Source: a virus
Taxonomy: Duplodnaviria > Caudoviricetes
Direction: 5' to 3' (one strand)
IMG/VR virus record: IMGVR_UViG_3300020577_007160
Location: 64,001 to 128,000 of that record
Length of the DNA stretch: 64,000 nt
Of this stretch, positions 1,982 to 63,137 are shown one piece after another. Every line of letters begins with the position of its first letter. The stretch's first letter is position 1. The position numbers and the translations under genes are program-made. The notes beneath the pieces are model-generated. The model did no database searches, was not told the origin of the DNA, and saw only the letters and a list, made by a program, of their open reading frames with translations.

Positions 1982-2491
1982 TTACCAGGTAGTTGATCCA
2001 TTTACTTTAGATAAGTAAAATGCAAAACCTAAATATTCCCCTGTATAATTATCTGATTTATATTTTTCTCCATAAACATGAGAACGTCTTCCATACCAAT
2101 TACCATCGTAATCCTGTGCTAATCCATCTTCTTCGTTTTCAACAGGATCTACATAGATGTCATAACCTTCATAGGCAAAATCTTTTCCTTCATTACTGAG
2201 CTTGTCAGCGAGTTCTTCTAAATAAGAAAAAGAAACAAACCCATATTGACCAAGACCAAATGTATCAATGAATTCTTGGGTGTTGTCTGTGTAATTCTGA
2301 GGATTCAACCCAAACACTTCAAAAGCACTTTCTGGTGCTGATTTCAGTTTTTTACGAACAATAGAAACAAGGCTCGATAAACTTGCACCAGTGCTACGCT
2401 CTTCCCTAACATTTCTATTATTTCTATTAACACCAACTTTTCTTTCCAGTCTTTGTAATCTCTCATTGAGAGATAATTTTCTTTTAATCAT
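1982..2491 (-). CDS. Tagged hypothetical protein (putative capsid-packaged cargo)
   Basis: N-terminus KLSLNERLQRLERKVG...VREE; AGGAG Shine-Dalgarno (SD). Confidence 0.75.
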   Translation of the reverse strand: MIKRKLSLNERLQRLERKVGVNRNNRNVREERSTGASLSSLVSIVRKKLKSAPESAFEVFGLNPQNYTDNTQEFIDTFGLGQYGFVSFSYLEELADKLSNEGKDFAYEGYDIYVDPVENEEDGLAQDYDGNWYGRRSHVYGEKYKSDNYTGEYLGFAFYLSKVNGSTTW

Positions 2492-2499
2492 TGTTGTTC

Positions 2500-2533
2500 T
2501 CCTTTTATGAAAATTGTTAAAACTATATAACTG
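2500..2533 (-). promoter_or_regulatory. Conserved leader CAGTTATATAGTTTTA...ATAAAAGGA (putative late promoter plus SD)
   Basis: 16 bp identical to 43061-43076; variant at 17191-17205. Confidence 0.5.
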
Positions 2534-2556
2534 ATTAAAATATATATATTAACTAA

Positions 2557-3867
2557 TTAACCTTTCTCAATGTATTTAACGTTTGTCATATCTTTTATAT
2601 AATCGGGAGAAAACCCATTACCATCCAAACCAGGATTTTCACTTACAAATAGAACTCTAACTTCTTCTGGAATAAAATCAAGAGTTTTTAAATTGTTATC
2701 TTGAACACTCAATAAATCTAATTTTTTATCTTTAATCCCCTTCAAAGAAATTAAAAGATTTGATTCAAATAATAAACTTCCACCACCCACTTTTGGGCAA
2801 TGTTCTAAATTTCTTAATTTATTATTTGAAGCATTAACACCCCAACAAGTTTCTGGACATCCATAAAGAGTATCTAAATTATTATAACTAATATTCAATC
2901 TCCCCTCAATAATTCCAAATCTATCTAAACCAAATTTTGAATAAAGATACTCATGAACTGACTTATAAGACCCTAGTTTCTCCTTGAGATTAACATCCCC
3001 TGTGACGTTTATTATGTTTCCATCTAATTCAACCTTACGGCATTTAAACGTAGATGCGAGTTTTAATTCAACAGAATCTGCTAAATTAATTGGTAAATCC
3101 TCCCAAGATTCTATTGGATTTCCATCCCAGATCAATTCCCCTTTAACATTTTTAAGATCTTCTGTGTGATATTTAAAGTCTTCGATGTTATTATTGGATA
3201 TATTTAAATCCCCACCAATTTTCTTTGGCATTCCCCAAAGACTTTCTAAATTATTAAAAGAAACGTCAAAATCCCCAGTAACTTCTAAAATACATTTAAT
3301 TTTCAAAGATTTTAAATACTCGTTAATAGTTTTAAAATTCTTCAATTGACCTGAAAAATTAACATCTCCTCTGATTATTACATCCCTATTAATTAGGGTA
3401 ATTTCTCCATTAACAAATTTTTGTAAAGAATTCTTAGCATTAATATCATCAAAATTATCTTTTAAAAATTGTTTTATACCATTAAATGGTTTACCATTTA
3501 CTTTTGTCAGATAAAACAATCCCCTTTCATAGGGGGGATAATAATATTTTTTATTTCTAAATTCTCTTATTTTTAATTTTGGAGTAAAGTCACAACAAAA
3601 TCCAGAATAAGAAAATGTACCTAGTACATCCTTAATATCATTAAAAATAGTATGGCCAATAAATCTTGGGTCATCAGAATTCAACATCTCTACAATATCA
3701 TCCCCCGTAAGACGGTCATCAATATCTATTGAATCAACTTTCTCTGGGAGAGATTTATCTCTTAAATATTTTTCTATGTCAGGGATAGAGGTGAGAGATT
3801 CAGAAATAATGCCCAATTCTCTCTCAAGAATCGAAAGTCTTTCAACAATTGATTTGTTAGATTTCAT
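2557..3867 (-). CDS. Tagged LRR-like repeat protein (paralog of 7195..8529)
   Basis: SIVERLSILERELGIISES tag; repeats such as GDFDVSFNNLESLWGMP and NASNNKLRNLEHCP. Confidence 0.8.
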   Translation of the reverse strand: MKSNKSIVERLSILERELGIISESLTSIPDIEKYLRDKSLPEKVDSIDIDDRLTGDDIVEMLNSDDPRFIGHTIFNDIKDVLGTFSYSGFCCDFTPKLKIREFRNKKYYYPPYERGLFYLTKVNGKPFNGIKQFLKDNFDDINAKNSLQKFVNGEITLINRDVIIRGDVNFSGQLKNFKTINEYLKSLKIKCILEVTGDFDVSFNNLESLWGMPKKIGGDLNISNNNIEDFKYHTEDLKNVKGELIWDGNPIESWEDLPINLADSVELKLASTFKCRKVELDGNIINVTGDVNLKEKLGSYKSVHEYLYSKFGLDRFGIIEGRLNISYNNLDTLYGCPETCWGVNASNNKLRNLEHCPKVGGGSLLFESNLLISLKGIKDKKLDLLSVQDNNLKTLDFIPEEVRVLFVSENPGLDGNGFSPDYIKDMTNVKYIEKG

Positions 3868-3930
3868 CCAATTTTCTCAGTTAAAATATATAAAATTTTA
3901 TAACTAAAATTTTAAAATAAACATCAAAAT

Positions 3931-6471
3931 TTACCAAACTATTTTAAATTTAACCTTCTTACCAGGATCTACAAATTTCATTATTATATCTTCATTTTCC
4001 TCTACGTCTGTCAACTCCGAACATAAGAACGTTTTTGTCATGCGTAATCTCGCAATCAAATCCTTAGCGTCTAGTTCACAACCTTTTAGCAGCCATGCTT
4101 TGTCATTGAATTTTGATAGAGAACACGCACCCCCCCATGACGTACCAATTTCAATATCAGCAGTTATTGGTACTCCATTCAAAAAGTCATGACGCTCTGC
4201 AACACCCTCGTTCATCGTATGATGAACAATATTCAAAACCTCAAATATCTCATCAGGATGGGTATCCACCTGAATCGAATCGTGAACTGTACCGATTAAT
4301 TTGGATTTTAAATTTCTTGTTTTTAATTCCTCATATATCTTCAACGTAGATCCCAAAACTACATCAGAAGCTGTTGATTGAATTGGGGTATTTTGTGCTG
4401 CTCTTTGGGACTCTGCTATTTTCTTCCACTCCGTAGAATCAACATCTCTTAAATGTCTTATTCTTCCAAATTTAGTTTGAACAAATTTATTCTTTTTCAA
4501 AAATTTATGTTGATACTCTATCCAGGATTTCAAAGCAGGAAACCCAACAAAAAAGAAATCTACTAACTTCTTTGCTTCTTCCCTTGATATCCCTAAATCA
4601 TTTGATAATCCGTATTCCCCCTTTCCGTATAAGATCCCGAAGACTATTGTCTTAGCACGTTTACGTTCCTGTTTAGAAACAAGTTCTGGGGAAGTTTTAA
4701 ACATCTGGGATGCCACATAAGAATGAATATCATACCCTTTTATATATGCGTCTTTTAATTTCTCATCTTTACTTAATGCTGTGATTACTTTTACTTCAAT
4801 TTGGGCAAAATCGCTAGAAATAATTAAACCACCAATGTCTGCGAAACGGCTCACAATCATTCTTTTGATATCATTTCCAGAAGGCAAAGTATGGAAATAC
4901 GATGAATTATGAACCACAACTCCAGAAGACAACAAAAAATTATTCCAACCATCCAACACTGAAATATCATACACTGGAACAGGATTCAACAACAGAACTA
5001 ACATTATTTTAGATACATAGATATTGATACCCTTTGACATCAACATATCATTTTCAATGAGGTCTTTGGCTTCCTTGTATGTTCCATCGTGGAGCATCCA
5101 TTTATGATCAGGGGTGCATCTTTCGGAGCAACCATTACTCAACATGACCTCGATCAATTCTGACGTGTATTTTGTCAGTCCTAATGATATTGCTTTTGCA
5201 TATTGGATCTCACCTTCTGGACTGCATGAATAGACATAGAATTCACTATCTTTTTCTAATTCATCCAATCTCTTTTCAGTACCATTTAATAATGGTATTT
5301 TTGTTTCACCTACAAAACACAGTCTCCCCGTTGCAGTGCCAATCAAATTATATTCTGGAGTATACATATCCCCAAATCTTCTTTCATCTAATGGCTCAAG
5401 ATATGTTGACAACATTTTAACAGAATTACGATTTTCCAATAATTCAGAACAGAATTTTTTAGCATCTTCTGATACTTCTCCAGAATTAGATTCTATTAAT
5501 TTCAATAATGATTTTTCATCCGTTGAAGGAAACCCTTTTTCTGTTTTTGTCAAAACAGGGCAATTATAATAGTTCTTACCAAATAAAACATTACCTACCT
5601 GTTTTGTTGAATCAATATTAAATTGCGTTAAAGTATCCTCCTTGTATTTTTTAATAAAAGGCAAATTCTGAATATGGTCTTCAAATTCCTGGATCTTTTT
5701 AGAATAGCATTCTATAAGAAAATTTCGAAAATTCCAATCAATAGAAATCCCAGTTGTTTTTAATTCAACAAAAACATGAATAGCTTTCAATAAGTATTCA
5801 TATGCAGTCATAATCCTATTTTTTGCCTTCTCTAGTAAGCCTAGTCGAAGATAATATGTGGCAATGGAATCATATGCACCATACTTGGAAAGTATCTCAT
5901 AGGGAATATTGAAAAAGTGACGGTCTTTCTTCAAACGATGGGAATTTAATTCTTTTTGAAGTTCATCCTCCCAAACAAGATCAACGTCAAAAGTGTGGCG
6001 GAAAATATTTTTCAGGGATAACGGCATTCCGGTGTCACGGCGAGCACCATAAATATAATAAGCCAGAAATAAAGTATCATCCTTAATTCGGACTCTTGAC
6101 ATGTCGAGTTTGAATTGAAATGCCAAGTAACTCAAGTCAAAAATAAGGTTATGACCAACGACAGGAATAACATAAAGAAGTTTGAATAAACAACTAAGGA
6201 TAATAGATTTTTCATTTTCTGGAACATAAAATCCAGGATGATCATATCCAATATAATAACCTATTTTATGGATAGGATCACAAATAGAAAATCCAGCAAA
6301 TCCACAATCAGGCTTATAAAAATCTAAGTGTTTTGTTTCAACGTCGAAAACAAAATGATCAATATCTCCAGCTATGTACTTTTGAAGTACTACTCCTGCA
6401 ATATCCCTGAATTCAAAAGCATTAAGTTCCTTCGTGATTAATAATTCGTCTGAATTATATTTTGTTAACAT
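3931..6471 (-). CDS. polA: Family A DNA polymerase with 3'-5' exonuclease, intein-containing
   Basis: Exonuclease motifs FDVET, VGHNLIFD, YGAYD; TATGRL|SS; motif A SDFAQIE; motif B RKRAKTIVFGILYG; motif C TVHDS. Confidence 0.95.
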   Translation of the reverse strand: MLTKYNSDELLITKELNAFEFRDIAGVVLQKYIAGDIDHFVFDVETKHLDFYKPDCGFAGFSICDPIHKIGYYIGYDHPGFYVPENEKSIILSCLFKLLYVIPVVGHNLIFDLSYLAFQFKLDMSRVRIKDDTLFLAYYIYGARRDTGMPLSLKNIFRHTFDVDLVWEDELQKELNSHRLKKDRHFFNIPYEILSKYGAYDSIATYYLRLGLLEKAKNRIMTAYEYLLKAIHVFVELKTTGISIDWNFRNFLIECYSKKIQEFEDHIQNLPFIKKYKEDTLTQFNIDSTKQVGNVLFGKNYYNCPVLTKTEKGFPSTDEKSLLKLIESNSGEVSEDAKKFCSELLENRNSVKMLSTYLEPLDERRFGDMYTPEYNLIGTATGRLCFVGETKIPLLNGTEKRLDELEKDSEFYVYSCSPEGEIQYAKAISLGLTKYTSELIEVMLSNGCSERCTPDHKWMLHDGTYKEAKDLIENDMLMSKGINIYVSKIMLVLLLNPVPVYDISVLDGWNNFLLSSGVVVHNSSYFHTLPSGNDIKRMIVSRFADIGGLIISSDFAQIEVKVITALSKDEKLKDAYIKGYDIHSYVASQMFKTSPELVSKQERKRAKTIVFGILYGKGEYGLSNDLGISREEAKKLVDFFFVGFPALKSWIEYQHKFLKKNKFVQTKFGRIRHLRDVDSTEWKKIAESQRAAQNTPIQSTASDVVLGSTLKIYEELKTRNLKSKLIGTVHDSIQVDTHPDEIFEVLNIVHHTMNEGVAERHDFLNGVPITADIEIGTSWGGACSLSKFNDKAWLLKGCELDAKDLIARLRMTKTFLCSELTDVEENEDIIMKFVDPGKKVKFKIVW
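4906..5319 (-). mobile_element. Mini-intein (138 aa) in the DNA polymerase
   Basis: CFVGETKI...CTPDHKW...VYDISV...VVHN/S inserted in TGRL|SS; too short to hold a homing endonuclease. Confidence 0.92.
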
Positions 6472-6516
6472 AATACTATCACAATATCTCTGGATTAAAA
6501 TTCTTTAAATACTATC

Positions 6517-6540
6517 AAGAACGGAACAATAATCTTAAAA
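6517..6540 (-). promoter_or_regulatory. Putative promoter TTTTAA-N11-CGTTCTT
   Basis: Motif copy between a terminator and the DNA polymerase start. Confidence 0.6.
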
Positions 6541-6571: not shown

Positions 6572-6590
6572 TAATCGTCAGTTATCACAA

Positions 6591-6737: not shown

Positions 6738-6754
6738 ATATTTATAATATAGAA

Positions 6755-7162
6755 TTAAAGTAGTCCTAGATTTTCTAGTGTTTCCATTGGAATTACTAAT
6801 TGTAATTCTGCTAATATTAGCAAACCATCTTCCAACGAAATTGTTTTCTGATTACTTTCTTCAGAACGTTTATTCTTTAGTAAGATGTGCATACTATCCT
6901 TTGATAAGGATATTAGTATCCTATATTCATCTTTTTCAAGAACAGAATATGATCGAGAACAAAATGGTGCTGTACCATTATCAAAATGAAGAGCATCAGG
7001 AAATAATGAAAAATCATGATGATAAAATCTTTCAAACTTCGCACCCGTTGGAGTCACGAACTCTGGATACTCTTCAGAAAAATCCAGACGTTGTAAGGGT
7101 ATTGATTGAAGTATTTCTTCTGGTTTTGATTCTTCCTGCGTTGATGTTGGTTTTTTAGCCAT
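6755..7162 (-). CDS. Hypothetical protein
   Basis: 135-aa ORF with AAGGA SD, co-oriented with its neighbours. Confidence 0.65.
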   Translation of the reverse strand: MAKKPTSTQEESKPEEILQSIPLQRLDFSEEYPEFVTPTGAKFERFYHHDFSLFPDALHFDNGTAPFCSRSYSVLEKDEYRILISLSKDSMHILLKNKRSEESNQKTISLEDGLLILAELQLVIPMETLENLGLL

Positions 7163-7194
7163 GATATATTTTCCTTGAAATTTTAAATAACTAT

Positions 7195-8529
7195 TTAAAA
7201 ACGAATATCCTTACATTCTGTTTTACTTAAAACATAATCCTCCGTAAACCCTCTTCCGTTTAATCCTGGATTTTTCATTACATTTGCCATATAATTGATT
7301 TTCTTTGGTATAAAATCTAGAGATTTTAATTTATTATCCATAACATCGAAATCCCATATTATATCGTCTTTAATACCCTCTAAAGAAATTAAAGAATTTG
7401 AATAAAATTCTAATGTTCCATGAACCCCAACTTCAGGACAATACTCTAAATTTCGAAGATTATTATTACTCGCATTTATCGAAAGACATTTTTTAGGACA
7501 TCCATAAAGAGATTCTAAATTATTAGAACTAATATTTATTTGATGAGAAATAGTTCCAAACCCTTCTAAACCAAATTCAGATTTAAGATAATCATGAACA
7601 GATTTATAAGAACCTAATTTACCAGAAAGATAAACATTACCAAAAGCATTTATTAAATCACCATCTAACTCAACTCTTTTACACTTAAAAAGAAAAGTTA
7701 ATTTTAACTCTAAATTATTAATAAATTTAACTGGCAGAAATTCCCAATCATCAATAGGGTTATTATTAAATATAAATTTTCCACCAACATTTTCAAGCTG
7801 TTTATCACAATATCTAAAACCAGAAATTCTATTATTGGAGATATCCAAATCTCCATATATTTCATAAGGCATTCCATAAAGAGATTCTAAATTATTGTCA
7901 GAAAAATCAACATTACCAGTGACTTTTGAAATCTCTTTAATTTTCAAGGATTTTAAAAAATCTTTAATACTTTTAAAATTTCCTAGTTTTCCTGAAAGAT
8001 CCAGATCCCCGTTAATTACAATACTTCGCTTTTTTAAAGCAACTTCACCATCCACATATTTTTCTAGAAAATTTAAAACATTAATACTATCAAAATTTAA
8101 TTTTAAAAATTGTTCAATACTATTGAATTGTTTTTTATCTACAGAGGTAAGATAAAATACTCCGTACTCATCCCAAGGAGTATGAACAAATTTTTTATTT
8201 CTAAGTTCCCGAACATTCAATTTTCCAGAAGTAAAATCACAACAAAATCCAGAATAAACAAAAGAACCCAATACACCTTGAATATCATAAAATCCATCGT
8301 GATCAATAAATCTTGGGTCGTCTAAATCAAGATATTTTAAAAGATCCCGCCCTGAATCAACAAATCTTTGGGGATTAATTTCTAATTCTTTTATCTTCGC
8401 AGGTACTGATTTCTGAATTAAATATTCTTCTACCTCAGATTTAGAATTAAAAGATTCCTGAATTATTCCTAGTTCTTTTTCTAAGAAAAGGATTCTATCT
8501 AAAATAGAATTTGATTTAATAGTTTTCAT
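7195..8529 (-). CDS. Tagged LRR-like repeat protein (paralog of 2557..3867)
   Basis: SILDRILFLEKELGIIQES tag; shares DDPRFI, YSGFCCDFT and FKCxxVELDG segments plus LRR-like repeats with 2557..3867. Confidence 0.8.
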   Translation of the reverse strand: MKTIKSNSILDRILFLEKELGIIQESFNSKSEVEEYLIQKSVPAKIKELEINPQRFVDSGRDLLKYLDLDDPRFIDHDGFYDIQGVLGSFVYSGFCCDFTSGKLNVRELRNKKFVHTPWDEYGVFYLTSVDKKQFNSIEQFLKLNFDSINVLNFLEKYVDGEVALKKRSIVINGDLDLSGKLGNFKSIKDFLKSLKIKEISKVTGNVDFSDNNLESLYGMPYEIYGDLDISNNRISGFRYCDKQLENVGGKFIFNNNPIDDWEFLPVKFINNLELKLTFLFKCKRVELDGDLINAFGNVYLSGKLGSYKSVHDYLKSEFGLEGFGTISHQINISSNNLESLYGCPKKCLSINASNNNLRNLEYCPEVGVHGTLEFYSNSLISLEGIKDDIIWDFDVMDNKLKSLDFIPKKINYMANVMKNPGLNGRGFTEDYVLSKTECKDIRF

Positions 8530-16743: not shown

Positions 16744-17163
16744 TTAACGAATCAAATCCATATTCAACGGAACATCATAATTATTTTTAGTGTAGTGATT
16801 ACGGGTAGTTTTTATTCCGTATTGTATGGATCGAACATCAATAGTATCCCTCGTTACTGTTCCATCTGAATCTACCCAAATATAACCAAAAACCCTAGGA
16901 CTTCCATTTCCTGTATTGAAAACATTCTCACAAGAAACTCTGTATTTTGAAACTCGAGAATTTGAAGACTCTTCCGAAAAGTTAATAGTTCCTAAGTATT
17001 CTGCAAATCTTATATTATTACCATTAATAATCTCGTCTTTGAAATATTCATAAAGTTCTTCCCCACATTCCCCCCTTGTACAACGGTACGCACGTGAAGT
17101 ACTAGATTCTTTAACAAGAACTTTTTCTTCTAACCTTAATATTCTTCTTTCGATTGAATTCAT
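16744..17163 (-). CDS. Tagged hypothetical protein (paralog of 60378..60809)
   Basis: MNSIERRILRLEEKVLVKES; AEYLG...GNGS.R.FG.IW.D.DG shared with 60378. Confidence 0.78.
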   Translation of the reverse strand: MNSIERRILRLEEKVLVKESSTSRAYRCTRGECGEELYEYFKDEIINGNNIRFAEYLGTINFSEESSNSRVSKYRVSCENVFNTGNGSPRVFGYIWVDSDGTVTRDTIDVRSIQYGIKTTRNHYTKNNYDVPLNMDLIR

Positions 17164-17170: not shown

Positions 17171-17205
17171 TCCTTTTATTAGTTGAATTGAAAACTATAC
17201 AACTA
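17171..17205 (-). promoter_or_regulatory. Conserved leader variant TAGTTGTATAGTTTT...ATAAAAGGA
   Basis: Matches the leaders at 2500-2533 and 43040-43076. Confidence 0.45.
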
Positions 17206-18103: not shown

Positions 18104-18483
18104 TTAAGTCTCTATATCATCCTCAAATTGACTCGCATAATACCATTCTAATTCTCTTTTATTTTCCATCTTTTTTAGCCATTTATACTCTAATCCTGTG
18201 TACTTCTTTATAAATTTGGCTTCCTGATCATATAAATCAACATCTACCGCATTAATAGATTTTCCATTAATCTTTATCCACTGGTCTAATCCTAAATGAA
18301 CTATAAAAGACTTACCACGATATTTAAAAGAATATTCTGTATATCCATAACGATCATAACCTGACCCATGAGATCCATTTTTTACCTTAAAATCTAAAAA
18401 TAAATTATCATTGGATTCTCCAAGTATACATTCTTCTAATTTTTCAATACGCTCTAGAAGAGAGAGAGAGATTGGTGTTTCAT
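18104..18483 (-). pseudogene. Tagged gene frameshifted at a (CT)6 run (phase-OFF or recoded; 125 aa if one CT is removed)
   Basis: AAGGA SD, then ATG AAA CAC CAA TCT CTC TCT CTC TTC TAG. The shifted frame reads LLERIEKLEECILGES... and stays open to TAA at 18104. Confidence 0.8.
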
Positions 18484-18495: not shown

Positions 18496-18777
18496 TTATT
18501 GTTTTATATAATGTTTATCCCTAGCAGAACTAGGAAAAGAACTTAATTTTCGTCCTATTTTATTAAAGAGTTCAACATAAACACAACCTTGTTCTTCCCA
18601 ATCAGAAAATGCTTTAGTGCTTGTATCATATTTTTTCTTTAATGGCTTCCTATCCATAAAATAGATAATAGCATAATTCCCAGAATTAGATTCGATTAGC
18701 TTACTTTCCACCCCAACTTTTCTTTCCAATCTATCTATTCTTTCCACTAAAGAAAGACTTGAATTTGAAAATTTCAT
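18496..18777 (-). CDS. Tagged hypothetical protein
   Basis: SLSLVERIDRLERKVGVESKLIES. Confidence 0.75.
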   Translation of the reverse strand: MKFSNSSLSLVERIDRLERKVGVESKLIESNSGNYAIIYFMDRKPLKKKYDTSTKAFSDWEEQGCVYVELFNKIGRKLSSFPSSARDKHYIKQ

Positions 18778-19661: not shown

Positions 19662-20069
19662 TTATCTTATATCCTCAATTTCCGTTACCCATTTTGGAAA
19701 ACCAACAAATGGGTCATCCTTACAATAAAGTGTGTAACTATTCCCGTTAGTTCCTCCAGAACCAACATATCTCCAATACCAATGAACATCAGCACAATAC
19801 ATTTTTTTGAGACCCAAAAAAGATTTATAATCTCTAATATACGTCTTTACTTCTAAAACTAATTCTGAAAATAAAGAAGCACATATACCAAGACGCTCTT
19901 CTTTGTAGGTTCTCTTAAAAGTATAAACATCGTCTTCTGAATAATCAGCTTTTTTCAAAATAGTCATTAGATTATTATCAAAATCTAAGAATTTTGCACT
20001 CTCTTCATTCAGCTTCTTTGAAGAAACTTTTTCTTCCAATCTTGATATTCTTCTTTCTATTGAATTCAT
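19662..20069 (-). CDS. Tagged hypothetical protein
   Basis: Start at ATG 20069: MNSIERRISRLEEKVSSKKLNEES. Confidence 0.75.
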   Translation of the reverse strand: MNSIERRISRLEEKVSSKKLNEESAKFLDFDNNLMTILKKADYSEDDVYTFKRTYKEERLGICASLFSELVLEVKTYIRDYKSFLGLKKMYCADVHWYWRYVGSGGTNGNSYTLYCKDDPFVGFPKWVTEIEDIR

Positions 20070-20084: not shown

Positions 20085-20366
20085 TTAATAATTGTAAATG
20101 TTTTCTTCTAACTCATCTTTCAAAGATTCAAATTTTACTCCAAGTCTTCTCAAAATATCTTTTAACTCATTTATTGAATTCGTGAGTTGTCTTTTATACC
20201 TGTTATTCAATTCAGATTCAATATCCAGAATACTTGATTCTTCTAAACTATCCAATTTAGATAGCAAAATATCATAATATCTTAAAAAATAATCTAACTC
20301 AGTTAAAACTGAATTTTTAGATTTTTCAAGATCTCGTGTAAATTCTTCAGCTTCCCGTCTTTTCAC
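20085..20366 (-). CDS. Hypothetical acidic helical protein
   Basis: Probable GTG start overlapping the upstream stop (GTGA): MKRREAEEF. Confidence 0.55.
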   Translation of the reverse strand: MKRREAEEFTRDLEKSKNSVLTELDYFLRYYDILLSKLDSLEESSILDIESELNNRYKRQLTNSINELKDILRRLGVKFESLKDELEENIYNY

Positions 20367-21211
20367 AAAACCTCCAATTGGCATTTTAGCTGACAACTTG
20401 AACTATAAATCCTGTAATACTTTCTTGGGTATAATTGAACTATCTTCAAACCACCTGGAACAACATAATATGTGCCAACATATGTAAATGTTGAATTGTC
20501 TTCAGACCATGCTAAGTGAAAATATTGAGTTGTTGCATGATTATGCCGAACTACAAGACAATTAGAATCTTCATATTTCAATCCAATTAACTCTTCATTA
20601 ACTTGGGAAGAACGATGCTGATACGTAGCTGTTAATGCAGCTGCATTATCAGGTGCAGTATAGAAAACTAATTTAAATATTCCAGTTTGATATTCAATGT
20701 AACCATAATCTAATCCTGTTCCTGAAAAGTTTCCATTAACATCGTCTGAAAATACGACAGGTGCAGAAGAAAAATTAATAGAAAAAGAAACTGATCCTGG
20801 AACAATTTCATCTAACAAGTTTCCTTCATAAGACAATTTTCCAGTCACTCCTGATATTCCAGTAGATCCCCCTGTTACCTGAATTGGGGTAGTAACAGTA
20901 TAATTGTAAACTGCGGTGATATTTGTTGAGTTGTCGGGTGCGGTTGTGAAAGTAAGAGCATATGCTCCTGTTCCATAATTGATTGTACCCGTTACTCCTG
21001 TGCCAGCAAGAACTCCATTACCATCGTCGGTGATAGTTACAGGTGAAGCAGAGATAGTAGAGGTTATTGTCAAAGAAGATGGTTTTATGTAACGACTCGT
21101 AAGAGTTATTGTTCCAGTAAATATTTTCTTTGTTCCATTCGCAGTGGCATCAATTGTTACTGAGGACTGCGCACTATGGGTAGAAAATATTTTAGTTTCG
21201 ATAGTTTTCAT
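20363..21211 (-). CDS. Putative virion structural protein (paralog of 18793..19659)
   Basis: TDDGNGVLAGTGVTGTINYGTG and TTAPDNSTNIT shared, including at the DNA level. Confidence 0.65.
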   Translation of the reverse strand: MKTIETKIFSTHSAQSSVTIDATANGTKKIFTGTITLTSRYIKPSSLTITSTISASPVTITDDGNGVLAGTGVTGTINYGTGAYALTFTTAPDNSTNITAVYNYTVTTPIQVTGGSTGISGVTGKLSYEGNLLDEIVPGSVSFSINFSSAPVVFSDDVNGNFSGTGLDYGYIEYQTGIFKLVFYTAPDNAAALTATYQHRSSQVNEELIGLKYEDSNCLVVRHNHATTQYFHLAWSEDNSTFTYVGTYYVVPGGLKIVQLYPRKYYRIYSSSCQLKCQLEVL

Positions 21212-48557: not shown

Positions 48558-49973
48558 TTAAACTGAAATATGCCTTTTAACATCACAAATTTCCATTACA
48601 TCTTCTGTTGTAAATTTTACAGAATTTCTTGAACAACTAAAATCCCGTCCAACCTTTGTTGGACATCCGTCTAAAGATGTTAATTTGTTTGTGCTACAAC
48701 TAAAATCCCCTCCAACTTTTACAGGGCATCCTTTTAATGTTTTTAAATTATTATTGGAACAATTAAATGTTCTCCCAATTTCCTTCGGACATCCTTTTAA
48801 GGATGTTAGATTATTGCTATAACAATTAAAATTTCCTCGTATTTTTTCTGGACATCCTTCTAAGGATTCTAATTTATTAAAAGAACAGTTAAAATTTTTA
48901 CCAACTTTTGTTGGAGATCCGTCTAAGGATGTTAGACTGTTGCTAGAACAATCAAATGTTCCTCCAACCTTTACTGAATATGCTTCTAAAGATATTAGTC
49001 TAACATTAAAAGAACATTCAAAATTTCCTCCAACTTCCTTTGGACTTCCGTCTAGTGACATTAATAAATTAGTATTACATTTAAAATCACCCCCAACTCT
49101 CGTTGGAGATCCGTCTAAGGATGTCAACTTGCTACCAGAACAATTAAAATTCCCAGTAACAGTTCCGAATCTGCCTATTTCAAGAATTGATTTTATATTG
49201 ATATTTGAAATATCAACATCCCCGTCAACATCTATTAATCCTTGAGAATTAATTTTGTATGTCCCTTTAATTCGAATTTCTAAATTTTCTTCTTTTGATA
49301 ATTCTTTTACTTTAAATAATTCTCTTGGTAAACCAACTTCTGAACACGGAATCTCATTATCTATAGCATCGTAACACTCTAGTCTTCCACTAGAATAAAC
49401 AGCTACTGCTATTTTGTATAATGGATTATCTGAGGACAGAGTTTTGTTGAAAACAAAATAAAATGTTGTGGATTCTTTTCTGTAACGTTTAAAATAATTT
49501 TTACTATCAGTAGCTGAAATACACCATTTTGTGTTTGAACCATATTGAATTGCTGCCTGTTCGTCTTTGATCAATAGGACAAGATATTTATCATTATTCA
49601 ATACTACTTCTGAACCTTTGTTCTTTATTAATTTTGTTTCTTCTGATTTTGACATTTTATCAGAATTAGAGTCTAAATATTCTTTAAATGAAGAATAAGT
49701 CTTAAATTGATTTATATCTTTGATATCAATTAGATTTTTAGATGAAAGTTTATCGAATAATTCAATATTTGATTTTAATTCTTCAAAATCTAGATCTTCA
49801 TTCTGAAGATAGAACTTACATATCTTTTCAATATATTTATAAGTTTTAGAAGTATCAATTGATATTAGTTCATCAAATACTTCAGAACCAATCTTATTTG
49901 AGTATAATTTTCTTGCATTCGCAAGAGACTCAAATAATTGGTTTTCTAATATTTGTATTCTTCTGAGTAGCAT
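48558..49973 (-). CDS. Tagged LRR-like paralog, 8 repeats
   Basis: MLLRRIQILENQLFES; eight full repeats plus a C-terminal cap. Confidence 0.85.
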   Translation of the reverse strand: MLLRRIQILENQLFESLANARKLYSNKIGSEVFDELISIDTSKTYKYIEKICKFYLQNEDLDFEELKSNIELFDKLSSKNLIDIKDINQFKTYSSFKEYLDSNSDKMSKSEETKLIKNKGSEVVLNNDKYLVLLIKDEQAAIQYGSNTKWCISATDSKNYFKRYRKESTTFYFVFNKTLSSDNPLYKIAVAVYSSGRLECYDAIDNEIPCSEVGLPRELFKVKELSKEENLEIRIKGTYKINSQGLIDVDGDVDISNINIKSILEIGRFGTVTGNFNCSGSKLTSLDGSPTRVGGDFKCNTNLLMSLDGSPKEVGGNFECSFNVRLISLEAYSVKVGGTFDCSSNSLTSLDGSPTKVGKNFNCSFNKLESLEGCPEKIRGNFNCYSNNLTSLKGCPKEIGRTFNCSNNNLKTLKGCPVKVGGDFSCSTNKLTSLDGCPTKVGRDFSCSRNSVKFTTEDVMEICDVKRHISV

Positions 49974-51111: not shown

Positions 51112-51603
51112 TTAATAATCATTATCACCAAGCGTCTTAACTTGTTCTACTGACCAAAAATCACAGGAACAAGAATACGTCATTTCAATATTTGAAGCAG
51201 AAGAATTATCATAAGATGGGTATTGTTCTGATTTGAAACAGAGACCAACCAAATAATATTTCAATACTTCTTCCCCATGATGCCACTTCGTGGCAACAGC
51301 ATCAAATTTTTGACCTGACTTAATGAAAGTGTCTACCATTTCTCTCATTTTTTTATCATTGTCACTACCATCAGCAACACGAGAAAGAGTAACATCTTCA
51401 TAATTAATAATTCCACCATGGAATTTGTACTTCAGTCCTACCCCACCGTCAGTGACTTCTGTTGTTTCAACAGTGCGAGTCAATCCATCTAATTTTTGAA
51501 AATTGGGAAATTGCATTCCAGAATCAACAATTTCTAATGTGAAATTATTCGCTGTAAGCGGATGTCTTGGCTGTTCTTTTGGTCCAACTATCGGCTCTGC
51601 CAT
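51112..51603 (-). CDS. Tail tube protein (gp19-like)
   Basis: PL...NF.LEI, FQKLDGL, DGG...K..G...YEDVTLSR, IE...SCD. Confidence 0.85.
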   Translation of the reverse strand: MAEPIVGPKEQPRHPLTANNFTLEIVDSGMQFPNFQKLDGLTRTVETTEVTDGGVGLKYKFHGGIINYEDVTLSRVADGSDNDKKMREMVDTFIKSGQKFDAVATKWHHGEEVLKYYLVGLCFKSEQYPSYDNSSASNIEMTYSCSCDFWSVEQVKTLGDNDY

Positions 51604-51902
51604 TTTTGTATTCCTTTATTTTTGTATAAAACATCTATATATTTTTCTGGATAACGTAAATACATAGGATCTGTATTTATCAAAGTATTTTCGAGTTGAC
51701 TAAATTGATTACGAGTTAGAATAAACATATCATATTTTTCATTAAATGCTGTATAACCAAATTGTTTGTCTATGTATTTTAATATAAAAGTTCGATCAGT
51801 TCTAAAATAGACATAATTAGAATTATAGATCGGAGTAGGAATACTGGATTCTTTTATCCCAAGTTTTCTTTCAAGAATTCTGATTCTTTGTTCAACGTTC
51901 AT
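51588..51902 (-). CDS. Tagged hypothetical protein
   Basis: MNVEQRIRILERKLGIKES. Confidence 0.72.
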   Translation of the reverse strand: MNVEQRIRILERKLGIKESSIPTPIYNSNYVYFRTDRTFILKYIDKQFGYTAFNEKYDMFILTRNQFSQLENTLINTDPMYLRYPEKYIDVLYKNKGIQKWQSR

Positions 51903-52233
51903 AACTATATGAAATATATTTCTTATAATTCTGAAAAATTACATTTTCTAGTCTGTACATCAATGCATTTATTTCATCCCTATCAAGGGAATATTCATCC
52001 TGAAGATACTCTTTTATTTTAGATTCAGACCGTCTCAAGATAACATTATTCCATTTTCCATTTCTATCAATTATGTCAGAAATATAATATCCAGTAATTT
52101 CTTTATAATTATTTATAATTTCAAAAACAACTTGTTGAGTTTTTTGAAAACTAAGAATATTTTGTTCAGTTAATTTTCGTTGCTTTATTCCAAGTTTGTT
52201 CTCAAGAATTCTAATTCTTTGTTCGATATTCAT
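51892..52233 (-). CDS. Tagged hypothetical protein
   Basis: MNIEQRIRILENKLGIKQRKLTE. Confidence 0.72.
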   Translation of the reverse strand: MNIEQRIRILENKLGIKQRKLTEQNILSFQKTQQVVFEIINNYKEITGYYISDIIDRNGKWNNVILRRSESKIKEYLQDEYSLDRDEINALMYRLENVIFQNYKKYISYSYER

Positions 52234-52312: not shown

Positions 52313-52603
52313 TTATTCAAAATCTTCTTTAAATTGAATCATATCAAACTTAGTATCTTGTAATACTTTTATTATTTTATCTAGTTTACTGGTATCGGAA
52401 ATCCATTCAGTTCTTCTTCTCTTTGTTCTTTTTAAATCTTCATATAAGTGATTTAATTGTATTGAAGATGTAGCCAATGAATGCATTATTAATTCTTGAG
52501 CCGTATCTCTTTCATATGCTCCTTCTTTTGGGGAAGAAAATTCTCTGGATTCAGATGATACTCTTTCCTCAAGTTTCAAAATTCTACGTTCTAAGTTTGT
52601 CAT
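52313..52603 (-). CDS. Tagged hypothetical protein
   Basis: Start MTNLERRILKLEERVSSES at 52603. Confidence 0.72.
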   Translation of the reverse strand: MTNLERRILKLEERVSSESREFSSPKEGAYERDTAQELIMHSLATSSIQLNHLYEDLKRTKRRRTEWISDTSKLDKIIKVLQDTKFDMIQFKEDFE

Positions 52604-52616: not shown

Positions 52617-52973
52617 TTATTTTCCAAATATCTTAGATTTAAATGAAAGAACTTTTTCTTTTACAAAATATTTTGCGATATTCTTTAGTTCTCTAGAAGA
52701 TAAATTTGTATTTTTATAGTCTTTCATTAACTCTATTACCGAGTATTCAATTGAAATTGAAAGATCAGACCTAAATTCTTTTAGATCCCAATAAAAATCA
52801 ATTGCATAAATTTGCCTTCTTTTGTCAATGCAACCTGAATTATTTACTTCCCAACCATAAATTAAAAACTGATTTTCTATTAGACGATTGAGTTGAGAAC
52901 CTAAATCTTCTAAATTAGTTTCAGAATGAAACTTTTCCTCAAGTTTCGAAATTCTACGTTCTAAATTTGTCAT
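52617..52973 (-). CDS. Tagged hypothetical protein
   Basis: MTNLERRISKLEEKFHSE. Confidence 0.72.
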   Translation of the reverse strand: MTNLERRISKLEEKFHSETNLEDLGSQLNRLIENQFLIYGWEVNNSGCIDKRRQIYAIDFYWDLKEFRSDLSISIEYSVIELMKDYKNTNLSSRELKNIAKYFVKEKVLSFKSKIFGK

Positions 52974-54903: not shown

Positions 54904-55128
54904 TCAAATGAGAATTAATTCGATATCTGAAATAAGTTCTGAAACACGAGAATCTAATTTAAAAATTCTTAATTCCCCTTTATACTCTTTTTTAAGAAGA
55001 ACTAATTTTTTGTAAAATTCATCTAATCTTTCATACTCATCATCTAACGCTCCGTTGCCCTCGTTGATTTTATTATTTTTACTAACTTTCGATTCTAAAA
55101 ATCGAATTCTACTTTCAATTGAATTCAT
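54904..55128 (-). CDS. Tagged hypothetical protein
   Basis: MNSIESRIRFLESKVSKNNKINEG. Confidence 0.7.
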   Translation of the reverse strand: MNSIESRIRFLESKVSKNNKINEGNGALDDEYERLDEFYKKLVLLKKEYKGELRIFKLDSRVSELISDIELILI

Positions 55129-57145: not shown

Positions 57146-57153
57146 GCTACCTT

Positions 57154-57233: not shown

Positions 57234-57668
57234 TTAATGTTGGTTTGCGTAATTAACAATGTAATCTGAAATCCAAGAACAATCTCCGAATCTTAGTCTC
57301 CACATCGCCATTTTTCCTAAATCCGCGGGAAATGGTTTATTAAAAACAAGAGCAATATCGGAACGACCACCAGAAGTCTTAAGAAGATAAGCTCCTCTGA
57401 ATAATTCACTTGGGGATTTTGAGGTTGCAATATCTTCGTCGAATAACATTTCAGAAACTCCGTCGATCCATTCATTTGGATTTCCCCCTGCTCCCAAAAG
57501 AACAATCCCCTTAGAATTAGATCTTTCCATAAGATTTTCAAATCTATAAAAGTTGATAGGTTTGATATTCCAATTGGAATAATTTCCTCGCAAAGTTTCT
57601 ACAACTTTTCTAGTATTAATTCCTATTTTTTCTTCTAATCTACTTATTCTGCGTTCTAAGTTTGTCAT
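57234..57668 (-). CDS. Tagged hypothetical protein
   Basis: MTNLERRISRLEEKIGINTRKVVE. Confidence 0.75.
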   Translation of the reverse strand: MTNLERRISRLEEKIGINTRKVVETLRGNYSNWNIKPINFYRFENLMERSNSKGIVLLGAGGNPNEWIDGVSEMLFDEDIATSKSPSELFRGAYLLKTSGGRSDIALVFNKPFPADLGKMAMWRLRFGDCSWISDYIVNYANQH

Positions 57669-59167: not shown

Positions 59168-59196
59168 GGTTCTTTATTTCAAATTATAAAAAATGT

Positions 59197-59586
59197 TTAT
59201 CTATTCAATATTCTTTTCGCATAAGATAATCTAATACTCCAACCCGAAGCATCGGGGTCACCAGCACAGTCTTCATCATCCGTAACCCATGCCTGATCAT
59301 CATCAATGGAACAAATCCAAAGTTTTCCATAGGATCCAAAATCAACATAATCTCCAGGTTCTATTTCATCAATATCTATATTTTCTGAAAATCTAGATTC
59401 TTTTACCTTAGATTTCTGTTTTTTCCATTTATTGAAGGCAATTATATATTCTCTTTCAGAATTAAATTTTCCTCCAGTTTCTTTTTCAAATTGTTTTAAT
59501 TCTTTATCAGAAGCATCTTGATAAAGAGATTTTCCTTCTTTCAATACTTTTGATTCAAGTCTTCTGATTCTTTGTTCAATGTTCAT
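59197..59586 (-). CDS. Tagged hypothetical protein
   Basis: Start MNIEQRIRRLESKVLKEG at 59586; further VKES and FSEN sites. Confidence 0.75.
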   Translation of the reverse strand: MNIEQRIRRLESKVLKEGKSLYQDASDKELKQFEKETGGKFNSEREYIIAFNKWKKQKSKVKESRFSENIDIDEIEPGDYVDFGSYGKLWICSIDDDQAWVTDDEDCAGDPDASGWSIRLSYAKRILNR

Positions 59587-59587
59587 T

Positions 59588-60253: not shown

Positions 60254-60276
60254 ATATTTGTTAATTATAAATCCAA

Positions 60277-60381
60277 TTAAATTTTATTAACAAATTCTTT
60301 TCCATCTTCTTCTAAATTTTTAAAATTTAAGTATTTCACTCTTAAATCAAATTTAATTGCTTCCCTTAATAAATGCCTCAA
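60277..60381 (-). CDS. Possible 34-aa peptide MRHLLREAIK...
   Basis: TTG overlapping the upstream stop (TTGA); fills the gap. Confidence 0.3.
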   Translation of the reverse strand: MRHLLREAIKFDLRVKYLNFKNLEEDGKEFVNKI

Positions 60382-60809
60382 ATAAAATCTCGATTTAAAA
60401 CTTCAACCTCATAATTTTCTTTTTTTGAAGAATTAAAAAGATTTTTAACAGACCAAGCAATAGAAGCCATATCTAAATTATCTTTAATAGCATTTCCATC
60501 TTTATCTATCCAAATTTCCCCAAACGTTCTGTTGCTCCCATTTCCCCAATTAAAAATATTTCCGGAACATACTCTAAATTTAATTCCAGATGGGCTACTA
60601 TAAAAGCGCATTTCTCCTAAATATTCTGCATATTTAATATTTTTTCTTTGTATCTTTTTTACAAAATACTGATATACATTTTCTGCAATTTCAGGAGTAG
60701 TTTTAGTCGCATAATATTTGCCTGGAACAACTATATTATTCTGATGATTTAATCTTCCTTCTTTTAATATTTTTCTTTCAAGCCTCAAAATACGTTGTTC
60801 AATGTTCAT
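60378..60809 (-). CDS. Tagged hypothetical protein (paralog of 16744..17163)
   Basis: MNIEQRILRLERKILKEG. Confidence 0.78.
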   Translation of the reverse strand: MNIEQRILRLERKILKEGRLNHQNNIVVPGKYYATKTTPEIAENVYQYFVKKIQRKNIKYAEYLGEMRFYSSPSGIKFRVCSGNIFNWGNGSNRTFGEIWIDKDGNAIKDNLDMASIAWSVKNLFNSSKKENYEVEVLNRDFI

Positions 60810-60819
60810 TTTGGTTTCC

Positions 60820-62421
60820 TTAGATTTTTTGAGATAAAAATTTACTTACTCTACGTTTGTAAGATTCTTCTGTTTTAGGTTCTTCTGTTGGAGTTTCTTC
60901 AGCAGATGCTTCTGGTGTCTCTTCCTCTGTTGAGGATGTTTCTTCCGCAGAGTCCTCTACTGGGGGTTCAGTCATCATAGAATCATCGTCTTCAACTGGG
61001 GGAACTTCCATATTGGCAGTTTCATCGAATTCTATTTCAATGATTGATTTACCAGTATCATCAGTAGAACTATGAATATTTTTTATTGGTTTATCAAAAC
61101 TCAAAGAAAGAGACTCATTTATTCTAGATGAAATCAATTTTTTGAATTCTTTCAAAACAACGCTTCTTTTATATTCGGGGTAATCACTGGCAACTTCTTC
61201 ATATAATTGTGGAAGTTTTTTACGTTTTAAATAACGTTTGATCTCGTTTTCATTTACTTTGAAATATTTACGTAAACTACTACGTAATTTACTTTCTGTT
61301 TTACAAGATTCATCTTCATAATCATTTTCATCATATTCTTCTATATCATCTGCTGATATTTCTTCTTCATCTCCGTCTTCATCTTCCATATCCCCAAAGT
61401 CATCAGAAGTATCAATTTCATCCTCCATGTCTGCGTCGGTTTCTGAGTCATCATCCTCGTCATCTTCTGAGACTCGACGCTTATTTCTGCCAAGGCGTTT
61501 TTCTACTTCCATAGATAAATCATCTATATCCATAGTATCTTCATCATTATCTTCTTCATCGTCATTATAGGATTCAATACCATCCTCTAACCCTTCATTA
61601 CGACGAGATTCATATACTTCCTCTGACCCCATTTGTCCCTTGCTACGCAAGCGAGTTAAAAGGGCATTCAAGGATGCGTCCTTCAATGATAAGTCTTCAG
61701 TTTTTAATGTGAAGAACAATTTAGAGTCACCTTCAGATGTTTCTGCAGACCGGAATCGAAAATGCATACCAGAAATAACATTAGTACGAACTTTCAATAA
61801 ATTGTCTTCAACAAGATTCAAAGTAAGGAATGACTTCAATTTATGTTTCAGAACTCGAGAATTTGCAGGACTGAGAATTTTAAATACGCAAATATCTCCA
61901 TCAGCGACAACAAAGAATCGAACAAGTTTCCTTGCATTATCTGTGATAGCAAATAAATATGCTTTATCTGGATAATATCGTGCTATCTTTTTGAGAGATT
62001 TAAAATTTGAAGTATTCTTTAATGCAGACTCAGGATCACCAGGAAGAATACCATAGAATAATAATTGCACATTAGAAACTGTGAGACCTTCTTTAATATT
62101 CAAAGTCTTTTTTAATTTTGAATATGAATTTCCACTTTCTAAGATTCTATCTAATTTTTTCAAAAATGATTCAGTCTTCATAGTGTTATCTGTGACGTTT
62201 ATTAAATGTTTTGTTTCCTGTTCAAATTCCTGCATATGATCTGCAGGGGTCAAATTAATTTTATCGAAACCATTATTTGTTAGATAATTTTTTAATGAAT
62301 CCCCTGATATGAAATTCTTAATTTCTCCTTCGAGATTCACTGAATAAGAATTTCCCATTATAGCATCAATGGTTAAAATTCTACCGAGATTATCTACATA
62401 TTTATCTTGTATTTCGAACAT
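60820..62421 (-). CDS. Acidic low-complexity protein, candidate prohead core/scaffold
   Basis: Long D/E tracts; many (I/L/V)xE-S/G/D sites; located among neck genes. Confidence 0.5.
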   Translation of the reverse strand: MFEIQDKYVDNLGRILTIDAIMGNSYSVNLEGEIKNFISGDSLKNYLTNNGFDKINLTPADHMQEFEQETKHLINVTDNTMKTESFLKKLDRILESGNSYSKLKKTLNIKEGLTVSNVQLLFYGILPGDPESALKNTSNFKSLKKIARYYPDKAYLFAITDNARKLVRFFVVADGDICVFKILSPANSRVLKHKLKSFLTLNLVEDNLLKVRTNVISGMHFRFRSAETSEGDSKLFFTLKTEDLSLKDASLNALLTRLRSKGQMGSEEVYESRRNEGLEDGIESYNDDEEDNDEDTMDIDDLSMEVEKRLGRNKRRVSEDDEDDDSETDADMEDEIDTSDDFGDMEDEDGDEEEISADDIEEYDENDYEDESCKTESKLRSSLRKYFKVNENEIKRYLKRKKLPQLYEEVASDYPEYKRSVVLKEFKKLISSRINESLSLSFDKPIKNIHSSTDDTGKSIIEIEFDETANMEVPPVEDDDSMMTEPPVEDSAEETSSTEEETPEASAEETPTEEPKTEESYKRRVSKFLSQKI

Positions 62422-62447
62422 CGTATTTTAGAGTTTAATATATAACG

Positions 62448-62891
62448 CTAGTCTGAAAATTTATGACTGATATCTATTTGACATATCAAATGAAGTGGAA
62501 CATGAACTGATGGAATGAAATCAGCATACTCCGCTGACAAGATTTCATAACGTTCTGTTTCTTTGTTAAAGGGAAAGATTATCAAGTCTCCTCTTTGTAT
62601 TTCTATGCCTTTTTCTTTTAACTGTCGGCAATTTAATCTAATTTGAATCTTGTTGGTTTTAACCCAAACACCTTCTTGCAATTCATTGATTTTCTTTTCT
62701 CGATCATAATCAGCATTTATTGGTATTAAATTACTACTATAAGTGCTTTTAACTCGCGTACCGAGAATTGAATGGATCTGAGAATGCTCTCGTTGAAATT
62801 GAGAAATATAAATATAAGGAAAACGTTCAAACAACTGTAGTTCATTTTGTTCTACAAGATCTACCTCAGCTTCTGAAAACCATGTTTCCAT
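62448..62891 (-). CDS. Probable head-closure / neck protein (gp14-like)
   Basis: GDLIIFP....YEI motif and context. Confidence 0.5.
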   Translation of the reverse strand: METWFSEAEVDLVEQNELQLFERFPYIYISQFQREHSQIHSILGTRVKSTYSSNLIPINADYDREKKINELQEGVWVKTNKIQIRLNCRQLKEKGIEIQRGDLIIFPFNKETERYEILSAEYADFIPSVHVPLHLICQIDISHKFSD

Positions 62892-63137
62892 TTAGTATTT
62901 TAAAGATATATTATATTCTTCTAATTTATCTTCTATCGTATTTGTAAGTTTATCTAAGTCTGATCTTATTCCAAATACACTAAAAGTTTTCACCCATTTA
63001 ATTCTGAAACTTCCTAATTCTTTGTAACACTGAGCCAAAGATTCTTTATCTCTTTCTGATATATCACTTTCCCTTAAATTTCTTTTATTAGAAACTCTAT
63101 TTTCTAATATTTTGATTCTTTGTTCTAGTGTTTTCAT
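62892..63137 (-). CDS. Tagged hypothetical protein
   Basis: MKTLEQRIKILENRVSNKRNLRES. Confidence 0.72.
   Translation of the reverse strand: MKTLEQRIKILENRVSNKRNLRESDISERDKESLAQCYKELGSFRIKWVKTFSVFGIRSDLDKLTNTIEDKLEEYNISLKY

Follow-up and report, generated by a model that had tools for sequence, protein, structure and literature searches.

The stretch of DNA analysed here (the window, 64,000 nucleotides) corresponds to bases 64001-128000 of the IMG/VR record IMGVR_UViG_3300020577_007160, a single virus genome of 179,512 bp with direct terminal repeats and 32% GC, whose minus strand holds about 305 of the 312 open reading frames (ORFs). The window contains genes for a DNA polymerase, a thymidylate synthase (ThyA), a UvsX-like recombinase, SSB and SbcCD, together with the tail genes for a tape measure of 1823 amino acids (aa), the baseplate wedge and hub and the tail sheath; the portal and the large terminase are encoded just outside it. 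Interspersed with these core genes are 23 genes that begin with the same short N-terminal sequence, hereafter the tag, and seven further tagged genes lie elsewhere in the genome. The 30 genes are spread across 125 kb, seven of them being located in early or replication regions, and account for 10% of the proteome residues. They occur either within late structural operons or as stand-alone units with a promoter-like motif of their own. As argued below, the tag is probably a propeptide that addresses these proteins to the phage head.

The preliminary description of this DNA had listed 23 tagged loci in the window. The motif is indeed found at all of them; however, only 20 are intact ORFs, while those starting at 18483, 42525 and 43033 carry the tag out of frame. 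The tagged genes of the window are the following (L089 is a contig of a close relative, family A a group of paralogues, both described further on):

1982-2491, minus strand: 169 aa, orphan body; tag of the SLxERL..LERKV subtype; own 5′ promoter-like motif
2557-3867, minus strand: 436 aa, repeat (LRR-like) family A; predicted cut after I-S-E, residue 23
7195-8529, minus strand: 444 aa, family A, 54% identity to 2557-3867; predicted cut after I-Q-E, residue 25
16744-17163, minus strand: 139 aa, 43% paralogue of 60378-60809; predicted cut after V-K-E, residue 19; own promoter-like motif
18104-18483, minus strand: out of frame; ATG plus 8 sense codons, (TC)6, stop; tag and body of ~118 aa in the -1/+2 frame
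18496-18777, minus strand: 93 aa, orphan
19662-20069, minus strand: 135 aa, orphan
31928-32440, minus strand: 170 aa; helix 3-15, predicted cut F-K-E17/S18, body modelled as ADP-ribosyltransferase superfamily (Tpt1/KptA/DarT-like); beside baseplate genes
32465-33772, minus strand: 435 aa, family A, PcfJ-like domain plus LRR solenoid; predicted cut L-F-E17/S18
35299-36342, minus strand: 347 aa, family A
37672-38826, minus strand: 384 aa, family A
42108-42525, minus strand: out of frame; 12-codon leader, TGA after (CT)5; a -2 or +1 slip would give a 139-aa tagged protein
42544-43033, minus strand: out of frame; (CT)5-TGA; a -2 or +1 slip would give the full tagged protein; own promoter-like motif
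48558-49973, minus strand: 471 aa, family A; immediately downstream of the tape measure gene
51588-51902, minus strand: 104 aa, orphan; predicted cut I-K-E18/S
51892-52233, minus strand: 113 aa, orphan
52313-52603, minus strand: 96 aa, orphan; without clear hydrophobic-x-E site
52617-52973, minus strand: 118 aa, orphan; without clear hydrophobic-x-E site
54904-55128, minus strand: 74 aa, orphan
57234-57668, minus strand: 144 aa, just downstream of the sheath gene; L089 slot holds a tagged gene with an unrelated body
59197-59586, minus strand: 129 aa; L089 slot holds a different tagged body
60378-60809, minus strand: 143 aa; L089 slot holds a different tagged body
62892-63137, minus strand: 81 aa; L089 slot holds a different tagged body

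The tag is an N-terminal amphipathic helix of two heptads with the core R-[IL]-x-x-[LF]-E-x-x-hydrophobic and the consensus (L/I)-E-x-R-(I/L)-x-x-L-E-x-K-(V/I/L), in which the 4-3-4 spacing of the hydrophobic positions corresponds to two coiled-coil heptads. A search of the 312 ORFs for R[ILVM]xx[LF]Exx[ILVFM] yields 30 matches, of which 26 fall inside the first 15 residues, against an expectation of 8.8% (binomial P 7e-24). The search with a profile hidden Markov model (HMM) that had been proposed as a check was carried out on the six-frame translation of the genome and gives 28 matches of at least 15 bits, every one on the coding strand. In the DNA flanking the capsid genes of 80 distant relatives, about 1 Mb in total, the best score of the same HMM is 11 bits, which indicates that the tag is not shared by relatives whose major capsid protein (MCP) is identical at 44% or less. 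The motif is thus not equally frequent at internal positions, and it is missing from the recognisable core genes: as already described, DNA polymerase, ThyA, UvsX, SSB, SbcCD, tape measure, sheath and baseplate proteins are all untagged. Aligning 27 tags of two phages shows complete conservation of the R and the E and almost complete conservation of the preceding L. On the other hand, the codons used at the conserved Leu, Arg, Glu and Ile positions vary between copies (six Leu and five Arg codons are found), indicating that selection acts on the peptide and not on the DNA.

Three variations of the tag deserve mention. The tagged gene G000 49067-49378 has about 20 additional residues ahead of the tag, and in L089 2882-3316 the tag helix is duplicated in tandem. 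The ORF 22665-23174 is the only one in the window with an internal tag-like helix (residues 82-101, 11.6 bits); this is followed by F-G-E-N-S-S, and the ORF has no PHROG family.

Once stripped of the tag, the bodies of the 30 proteins fall into one six-member family, one pair and 22 singletons, i.e., about 24 groups, none of which resembles any untagged protein of the genome, so that the bodies are mostly unrelated, as first reported. No significant Pfam match was obtained for the ten largest tagged proteins, nor any PHROG match for 20 small ones (0/20), whereas 26 of 40 untagged neighbours match a PHROG family (Fisher P 5e-7). The protein encoded by 60378-60809 found only itself in a word-index search of 5.8 billion proteins, a search that also missed its 43% paralogue. 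Many of the tagged proteins are small and charged, and the isoelectric point (pI) of the bodies ranges from 4.4 to 9.5.

The turnover of these bodies becomes apparent from the comparison with L089, a 21-kb contig that was the only close one in our metagenome scan and whose MCP is 86% identical to that of the present phage. The structural genes of the two are syntenic and 44-87% identical, and about 10 tagged genes are found in the 21 kb of L089, lying in the same slots between the structural genes. However, BLAST detects no match between the bodies that occupy the same slot, the tag alone being alignable, and L089 also bears tagged genes in slots that are vacant here. Judging from these comparisons, the putative cargo set is large, changes fast and consists mostly of orphan bodies.

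The phage encodes a candidate enzyme for the removal of such a leader. An ORF of 513 aa located just outside the window (G000 130374-131915; L002 2374-3915) contains a gp21-type prohead protease domain (Peptidase_S77, PF03420, 69.6 bits, above the cut-off; phrog_207, head maturation protease) fused to about 300 aa of coiled-coil, scaffold-like sequence. Just outside the window lies also a Gp23-type MCP gene (phrog_138; PF07068, recorded for the MCP and all listed homologues). In T4, gp21 cleaves after L/I-X-E (PMC9026906), and the capsid-targeting sequence (CTS) that it removes, experimentally defined as MKTYQEFIAE (PMC8442874), consists of two parts, residues 4 and 7 serving for targeting and residues 8 and 10 for processing (PMC9026906). 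A comparable arrangement is seen behind the helix of the present tag. Within 18 residues after the helix, a hydrophobic-x-E sequence is found in 28 of the 30 tags, compared to 34% of background windows (P 1e-11), and 20 of 26 tags have this sequence followed by S, G, A or T, compared to 7% of the background (P 1.5e-18). The leaders predicted from these sites are 13-30 residues long. The N-terminus of the protease itself shows hydrophobic-x-E at residues 5 and 16, reminiscent of the LIE-9 site of T4 gp21; as a possible further member of the tag family it was rejected, given that it scores 6.8 bits in the tag HMM and is unconserved in L089.

The strongest line of evidence, albeit a comparative one, comes from the homologues of the two cargo families that can be followed into other phages. 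The first consists of the single gene 31928-32440, for which no Pfam, NCBIfam or PHROG family match was found. Its AlphaFold2 model (predicted local distance difference test, pLDDT, 89.5) displays a separate tag helix at residues 3-15, a coil at 16-22 and a globular body from residue 23, and the predicted cut E17/S18 falls within the coil. With this body, Foldseek retrieves Tpt1, KptA, DarT and Scabin at probability 1.0, while VIA-align superposes it on the catalytic domain of yeast Tpt1 (Z 11.5, root-mean-square deviation 2.7, 112 aligned residues) and, with Z of about 9, on DarT and KptA, all alignments beginning at model residue 16-22. The model thus assigns the body to the ADP-ribosyltransferase (ART) superfamily fold. 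Residues Y25, H26, T28, S52, R55 and E106, which are invariant in the family, would fit an H-type NAD pocket. The gene is located in the baseplate module. T4-like genes of the Alt ART family also adjoin baseplate genes, consistent with late expression and packaging, and T4 Alt is an ART that is packaged in the head and injected (PMC5512222).

Among 948 representative homologues of 31928-32440 we considered 46 short and mutually divergent ones. In all of them the conserved body begins at the same place, with a leader of 6-21 residues (median 10) ahead of it. At the junction between leader and body, P1 is E in 43 of 46 cases, P3 is L or I in 35 and P1′ is one of A, G and S in 41. The leaders themselves vary from lineage to lineage: the tag type found in the window is borne by the closest homologue (54% identity), while in another one the leader reads MKTYKEFVFE, identical at 7 of 10 positions to the T4 CTS. 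The ART-like module is also present in the giant multi-domain proteins P0159, P0160, P0162 and P0163 (594-1829 aa), each of which contains 2-6 copies of it.

The second family (family A) comprises six tagged genes and combines a PcfJ-like domain with leucine-rich repeats (LRRs). Its homologues carry PF12799 (LRR_4), and the model (pLDDT 88.9) shows a regular C-terminal beta-solenoid, with weak fold matches to the LRRs of YopM, IpaH and SspH1 and weak NCBIfam matches to InlJ and SspH2. Thus, the labels "LRR-like" and "ART-like" of the preliminary description hold, the former at the level of family and fold, the latter at that of the fold. In 17 homologues of family A the E17 that precedes the predicted cut is invariant and the Ser that follows it nearly so, whereas upstream of the junction at least four types of leader are found, which again differ by lineage and include a T4-CTS-like one. 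Furthermore, on the 253-kb viral contig behind L091 the homologues of both cargo families bear the leader proper to that phage. Taken together, the two families show that the same cargo stands behind different addresses in different phages, always joined to them at a protease-type site.

Short leaders of this kind are not restricted to the two families. A de novo scan of viral loci revealed many other large phages with a short leader of their own on genes with unlike bodies (IMG/VR loci L114, L100, L119, L029, L097, L096, L047, L149, L102 and L094), several of these loci having been selected through a gp23-like capsid gene. The leaders usually end in hydrophobic-x-E and are carried by several to ten genes each, in one locus by ten within 20 kb. 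All four of the records that could be searched encode an S77 protease, here unfused and 222-229 aa long. Among cultured phages, Bacillus phage SP-15 (L169, NC_031245.1) has a leader of 7-8 residues ending in F-L-R-E on at least three genes (SP15_243, SP15_259 and SP15_261), two of which are homologues of the ART-like cargo. No survey of such leader families was found in the literature searched.

By capsid protein, the closest cultured phages, at 33-39% identity, are Listeria LIS04, Bacillus SP-15 and HSE3, the Maribacter phages and Streptococcus GXN1, and T4-like gp23, including by tblastn that of T4-like cyanophages, gives more distant matches; for this reason the phage is classified, from its sequence, as a myovirus, uncultured and a distant member of the T4 superfamily. 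Nearly the same DNA is present in wastewater, river and activated-sludge metagenomes of several studies. A megablast search with the tape measure gene against GenBank phages gave no match, and the MCP as a single query revealed no relative in the IMG/VR scan.

Based on the above, we consider the tag to be a capsid-targeting propeptide specific to this lineage, which would fulfil the role of the 10-residue T4 CTS but is built in a different way, and we assign to this interpretation a probability of roughly 0.7. The helix would dock the protein onto the prohead core, represented here by the 513-aa protease-scaffold fusion, and the linker behind it would end with hydrophobic-x-E followed by S, G or A, i.e., an L/I-x-E-type site of gp21-type proteases. 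Upon closure of the shell the protease would remove the leader, and the mature cargo would stay in the head to exit with the DNA at infection. A complex prediction between the tag alignment and the coiled-coil part of the scaffold gave no answer (score 0.00, without controls) and constitutes no evidence either way. The earlier proposal of an N-terminal address by which a large and exchangeable set of proteins is loaded into the head and trimmed by a protease is therefore supported by the gp21-type protease, by the site behind the tag and by the leaders of the homologues.

Some observations do not favour this interpretation. Two tags are without any hydrophobic-x-E, and 6 of 26 lack one with a small residue behind it. 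Compared to the T4 CTS, the tag is longer and shows no similarity in sequence; the bodies are not uniformly basic as the T4 internal proteins are, and thirty cargo species are far more than the number documented for T4. The six LRR proteins are encoded in the baseplate module and could be structural. In addition, hydrophobic-x-E followed by G or A stands ahead of all 17 internal ART-like modules of the giant homologues, so that in the ART-like family alone the motif could belong to the domain instead of being a cut site; alternatively, these giant proteins may be polyproteins jointed by sites for the head protease. Lastly, presence in the virion, cleavage and injection of the tagged proteins are deduced here from the genome of an uncultured phage.

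Among the other explanations, one is that the tag is a propeptide of head assembly and the tagged proteins are accessory parts of the core or scaffold, which are degraded or expelled at maturation like gp67, gp68 and gp22 of T4. The same protease and the same site logic would apply, since gp21 cleaves the core proteins of T4 as well (PMC9026906), and the small size and charge of many tagged proteins would be in keeping with such a role. We nevertheless regard it as unlikely, because some 24 unrelated and fast-changing bodies, of which one is an ART-fold enzyme and others are LRR proteins, would hardly be expected of structural scaffold parts and because the tagged genes are swapped between close relatives in which the true structural genes are conserved.

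A second explanation, which appears equally improbable, is that the helix is never cleaved and acts as a coiled coil for oligomerisation or for attachment to the exterior of the virion (tail, baseplate or capsid decoration). The 4-3-4 heptad pattern would fit such a function, and tail and baseplate genes surround many of the tagged genes, four of the six LRR genes among them; however, seven tagged genes are found in early or replication regions, and thirty unrelated proteins would need a single docking site. Moreover, this explanation leaves the protease-type site behind the helix, far above background, unaccounted for, and the 6-21-residue leaders of the homologous cargo in other phages, some of them similar to the T4 CTS, are too short to form a coiled coil.

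It is very improbable that the leader serves for recognition by a modifying enzyme, as in ribosomally synthesised and post-translationally modified peptides, and not for sorting: the genome does have one radical S-adenosylmethionine (SAM) ORF that might encode a maturase, yet this is generic, far below every curated cut-off, without a SPASM domain and about 6 kb away from the nearest of the tagged genes, which span 125 kb, and the tag is devoid of Cys, Ser/Thr or any other typical modification core. It is just as hard to believe that the conserved 5′ end is a nucleic-acid feature (a cassette recombination joint or a translation signal) encoding a functionless peptide, for although the tagged genes act as swappable units, some with a common promoter-like motif, six Leu and five Arg codons are used while the hydrophobic periodicity is kept, and R and E are invariant throughout the 27 tags of the two phages.

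As to the expression signals of the tagged genes, the promoter-like motif (AGTTATATAGTTTTCAATTCAAC and variants) has 13 copies on the coding strand, nine of which are positioned about 40 nt upstream of tagged genes, five of these outside the window and four inside it (2531, 8566, 17203 and 43074, minus strand). One core was delimited:

17195-17203, minus strand: promoter-like motif core, ~40 nt upstream of the tagged gene starting at 17163; other copies start at 2531, 8566 and 43074

Owing to this motif, the tagged genes of the replication region look like autonomous units belonging to one regulatory class. For the T4 late promoter TATAAATA the coding strand shows no enrichment (25 vs 27), and late timing cannot be deduced from it. 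Another intergenic motif, AACGTTCT(T), is enriched in the gaps 5′ of mostly untagged genes, chiefly in the early region; examples are found at 4033, 6870 and 22156 of the window and many more in G000 941-45720. It probably represents a further class of promoter or regulatory element.

A peculiarity of the leaders is the occurrence of (CT) repeats. The coding strand of the genome contains four (CT) tracts of at least four units, and all of them lie inside leaders of tagged genes, with S-L-S-L as the encoded sequence. In three of them the frame is off by one repeat unit, while the fourth (G000 ~63481-63490) is in frame. The three located in the window are:

18459-18470, minus strand: (CT/TC)6 tract in the leader of the gene starting at 18483
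42489-42498, minus strand: (CT)5 tract in the leader of the gene starting at 42525; equal length in contigs of two further samples
42997-43006, minus strand: (CT)5 tract in the leader of the gene starting at 43033

In each of the three genes the ATG is followed by 8-11 further sense codons, (CT)5-6 and a stop, and the tag and body continue uninterrupted in a shifted frame. The frame of 42525 and 43033 would be restored by a -2 slip, which permits perfect CUC-to-CUC re-pairing, or by +1, and that of 18483 by -1/+2. These genes thus possess the hallmark of contingency genes, namely a simple repeat in the 5′ coding part whose unit changes switch the frame. The lengths of the tracts were compared in contigs of four runs, which cannot show minority variants, and the gaps seen in some low-depth runs do not count as a sign that the length varies. 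The three genes may be subject to phase variation or to ribosomal slippage, or may be recent pseudogenes. A more far-reaching scenario can be advanced as a conjecture, which we hold to be possible but doubtful: a coiled-coil zipper would have replaced the 10-residue address of T4 type and co-evolved with the protease-scaffold fusion, and it would load about 30 effectors, a subset of which is switched by slippage at (CT)n, either of the DNA or of the ribosome (-2/+2). If so, the switching would produce a virion population with varied injected repertoires.

If the tag is indeed a capsid address, it represents a label, readable from the sequence, for proteins delivered into the cell before phage gene expression, a class that includes anti-restriction and host-takeover factors and is otherwise almost unpredictable among orphan genes. 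It would further imply that the address can be replaced in evolution while cut site and cargo stay, which helps to recognise such systems in other phages; and a second address, of coiled-coil type, would be useful for engineering protein-loaded capsids, as done with the T4 CTS. The concept itself is not new: the T-even internal proteins are diverse except for their conserved CTS, and reviews of T4 have already suggested that the CTS may have evolved as a means of loading a variety of proteins (PMC3012670, PMC9026906).

Two additional observations concern the head module. It contains one homing-endonuclease-like gene of GIY-YIG type according to PHROG (L002 5305-6246), and the head module of L089 has three related copies (2143-2928, 5052-5825 and 6775-7746). 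Furthermore, a segment of about 60-80 residues within residues ~154-235 of the MCP of the relative recurs, with 33-40% identity, in the window ORFs 20363-21211 and 30785-31927, which suggests an insertion domain that virion proteins have in common.

The preliminary description had presented the tagged genes as a candidate new system. From the comparisons made here, they are better regarded as a coiled-coil-type and greatly expanded variant of the CTS/gp21 system, in a phage of the T4 superfamily with uncultured relatives among which lineage-specific leaders are common. The genome has a gp21-family protease, a gp23-family MCP, a propeptide on unrelated bodies and a leader end of L/I-x-E type; since the leader itself is a different and longer helix, without similarity to MKTYQEFIAE, we classify the system as a variant and not as a member by sequence.

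The tagged genes can be compared with several systems already described. As with the morons or accessory cassettes of tailed phages, some of them stand alone between core genes with a promoter-like motif of their own; morons, however, are not defined by a common protein-level address. In the T-even phages, Repoila et al. in 1994 reportedly described polymorphic ip loci. The CTS-like leaders on the variable basic proteins of T2L and T6 provide a closer parallel, in that a conserved leader is joined to divergent mature parts, a divergence linked by review to an arms race with host defences (PMC9026906); but in these phages the T4-type CTS is kept and the loci are dedicated, whereas here a new address would have taken its place and core genes lie between the tagged ones.

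The inner-body and ejection proteins of phiKZ, 201phi2-1 and SPN3US are likewise numerous, head-internal and in part paralogous, and their propeptides, thought to target the proteins into the prohead, are cut after Glu by a diverged gp21 homologue, gp175/gp245 (PMC5694885, PMC9026906). In contrast to the tag, these propeptides are mostly longer than 100 residues, do not form one common tag and have an S/A/G-x-E motif, and the cargo is known from virion proteomics. Polyvalent proteins and packaged effectors (Iyer et al. 2017, PMC5512222) also comprise effector domains, including ARTs, for which packaging in the head and injection are predicted, and the ART-like module of 31928-32440 recurs in giant multi-domain proteins; unlike them, the presumed effectors of the present phage are separate small genes, each with its own tag, and not one multi-domain polypeptide.

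The best counterpart is the CTS of IPI, IPII, IPIII and Alt of T4, which is removed by gp21 (Mullaney and Black 1996; PMC9026906, PMC3012670, PMC8442874). Both are short N-terminal propeptides on unrelated proteins, both consist of two parts, putative or established targeting residues followed by an L/I-x-E site, and both occur with a protease of the gp21 family, a capsid protein of the gp23 family, an ART-fold cargo (Alt in T4) and a diverse, poorly conserved repertoire. The differences reside in the leader, here of 13-30 residues and containing a two-heptad helix; in the number of cargo genes, about 30 throughout the genome compared to a handful in the T4 ip loci; in the fusion of the protease to a scaffold domain; and in the nature of the data, as the system described here is known from sequence alone. 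Particular to this phage are, therefore, the coiled-coil address, the protease-scaffold fusion, the scale of the cargo set, the dispersal of its genes and the (CT)n tracts in four leaders.

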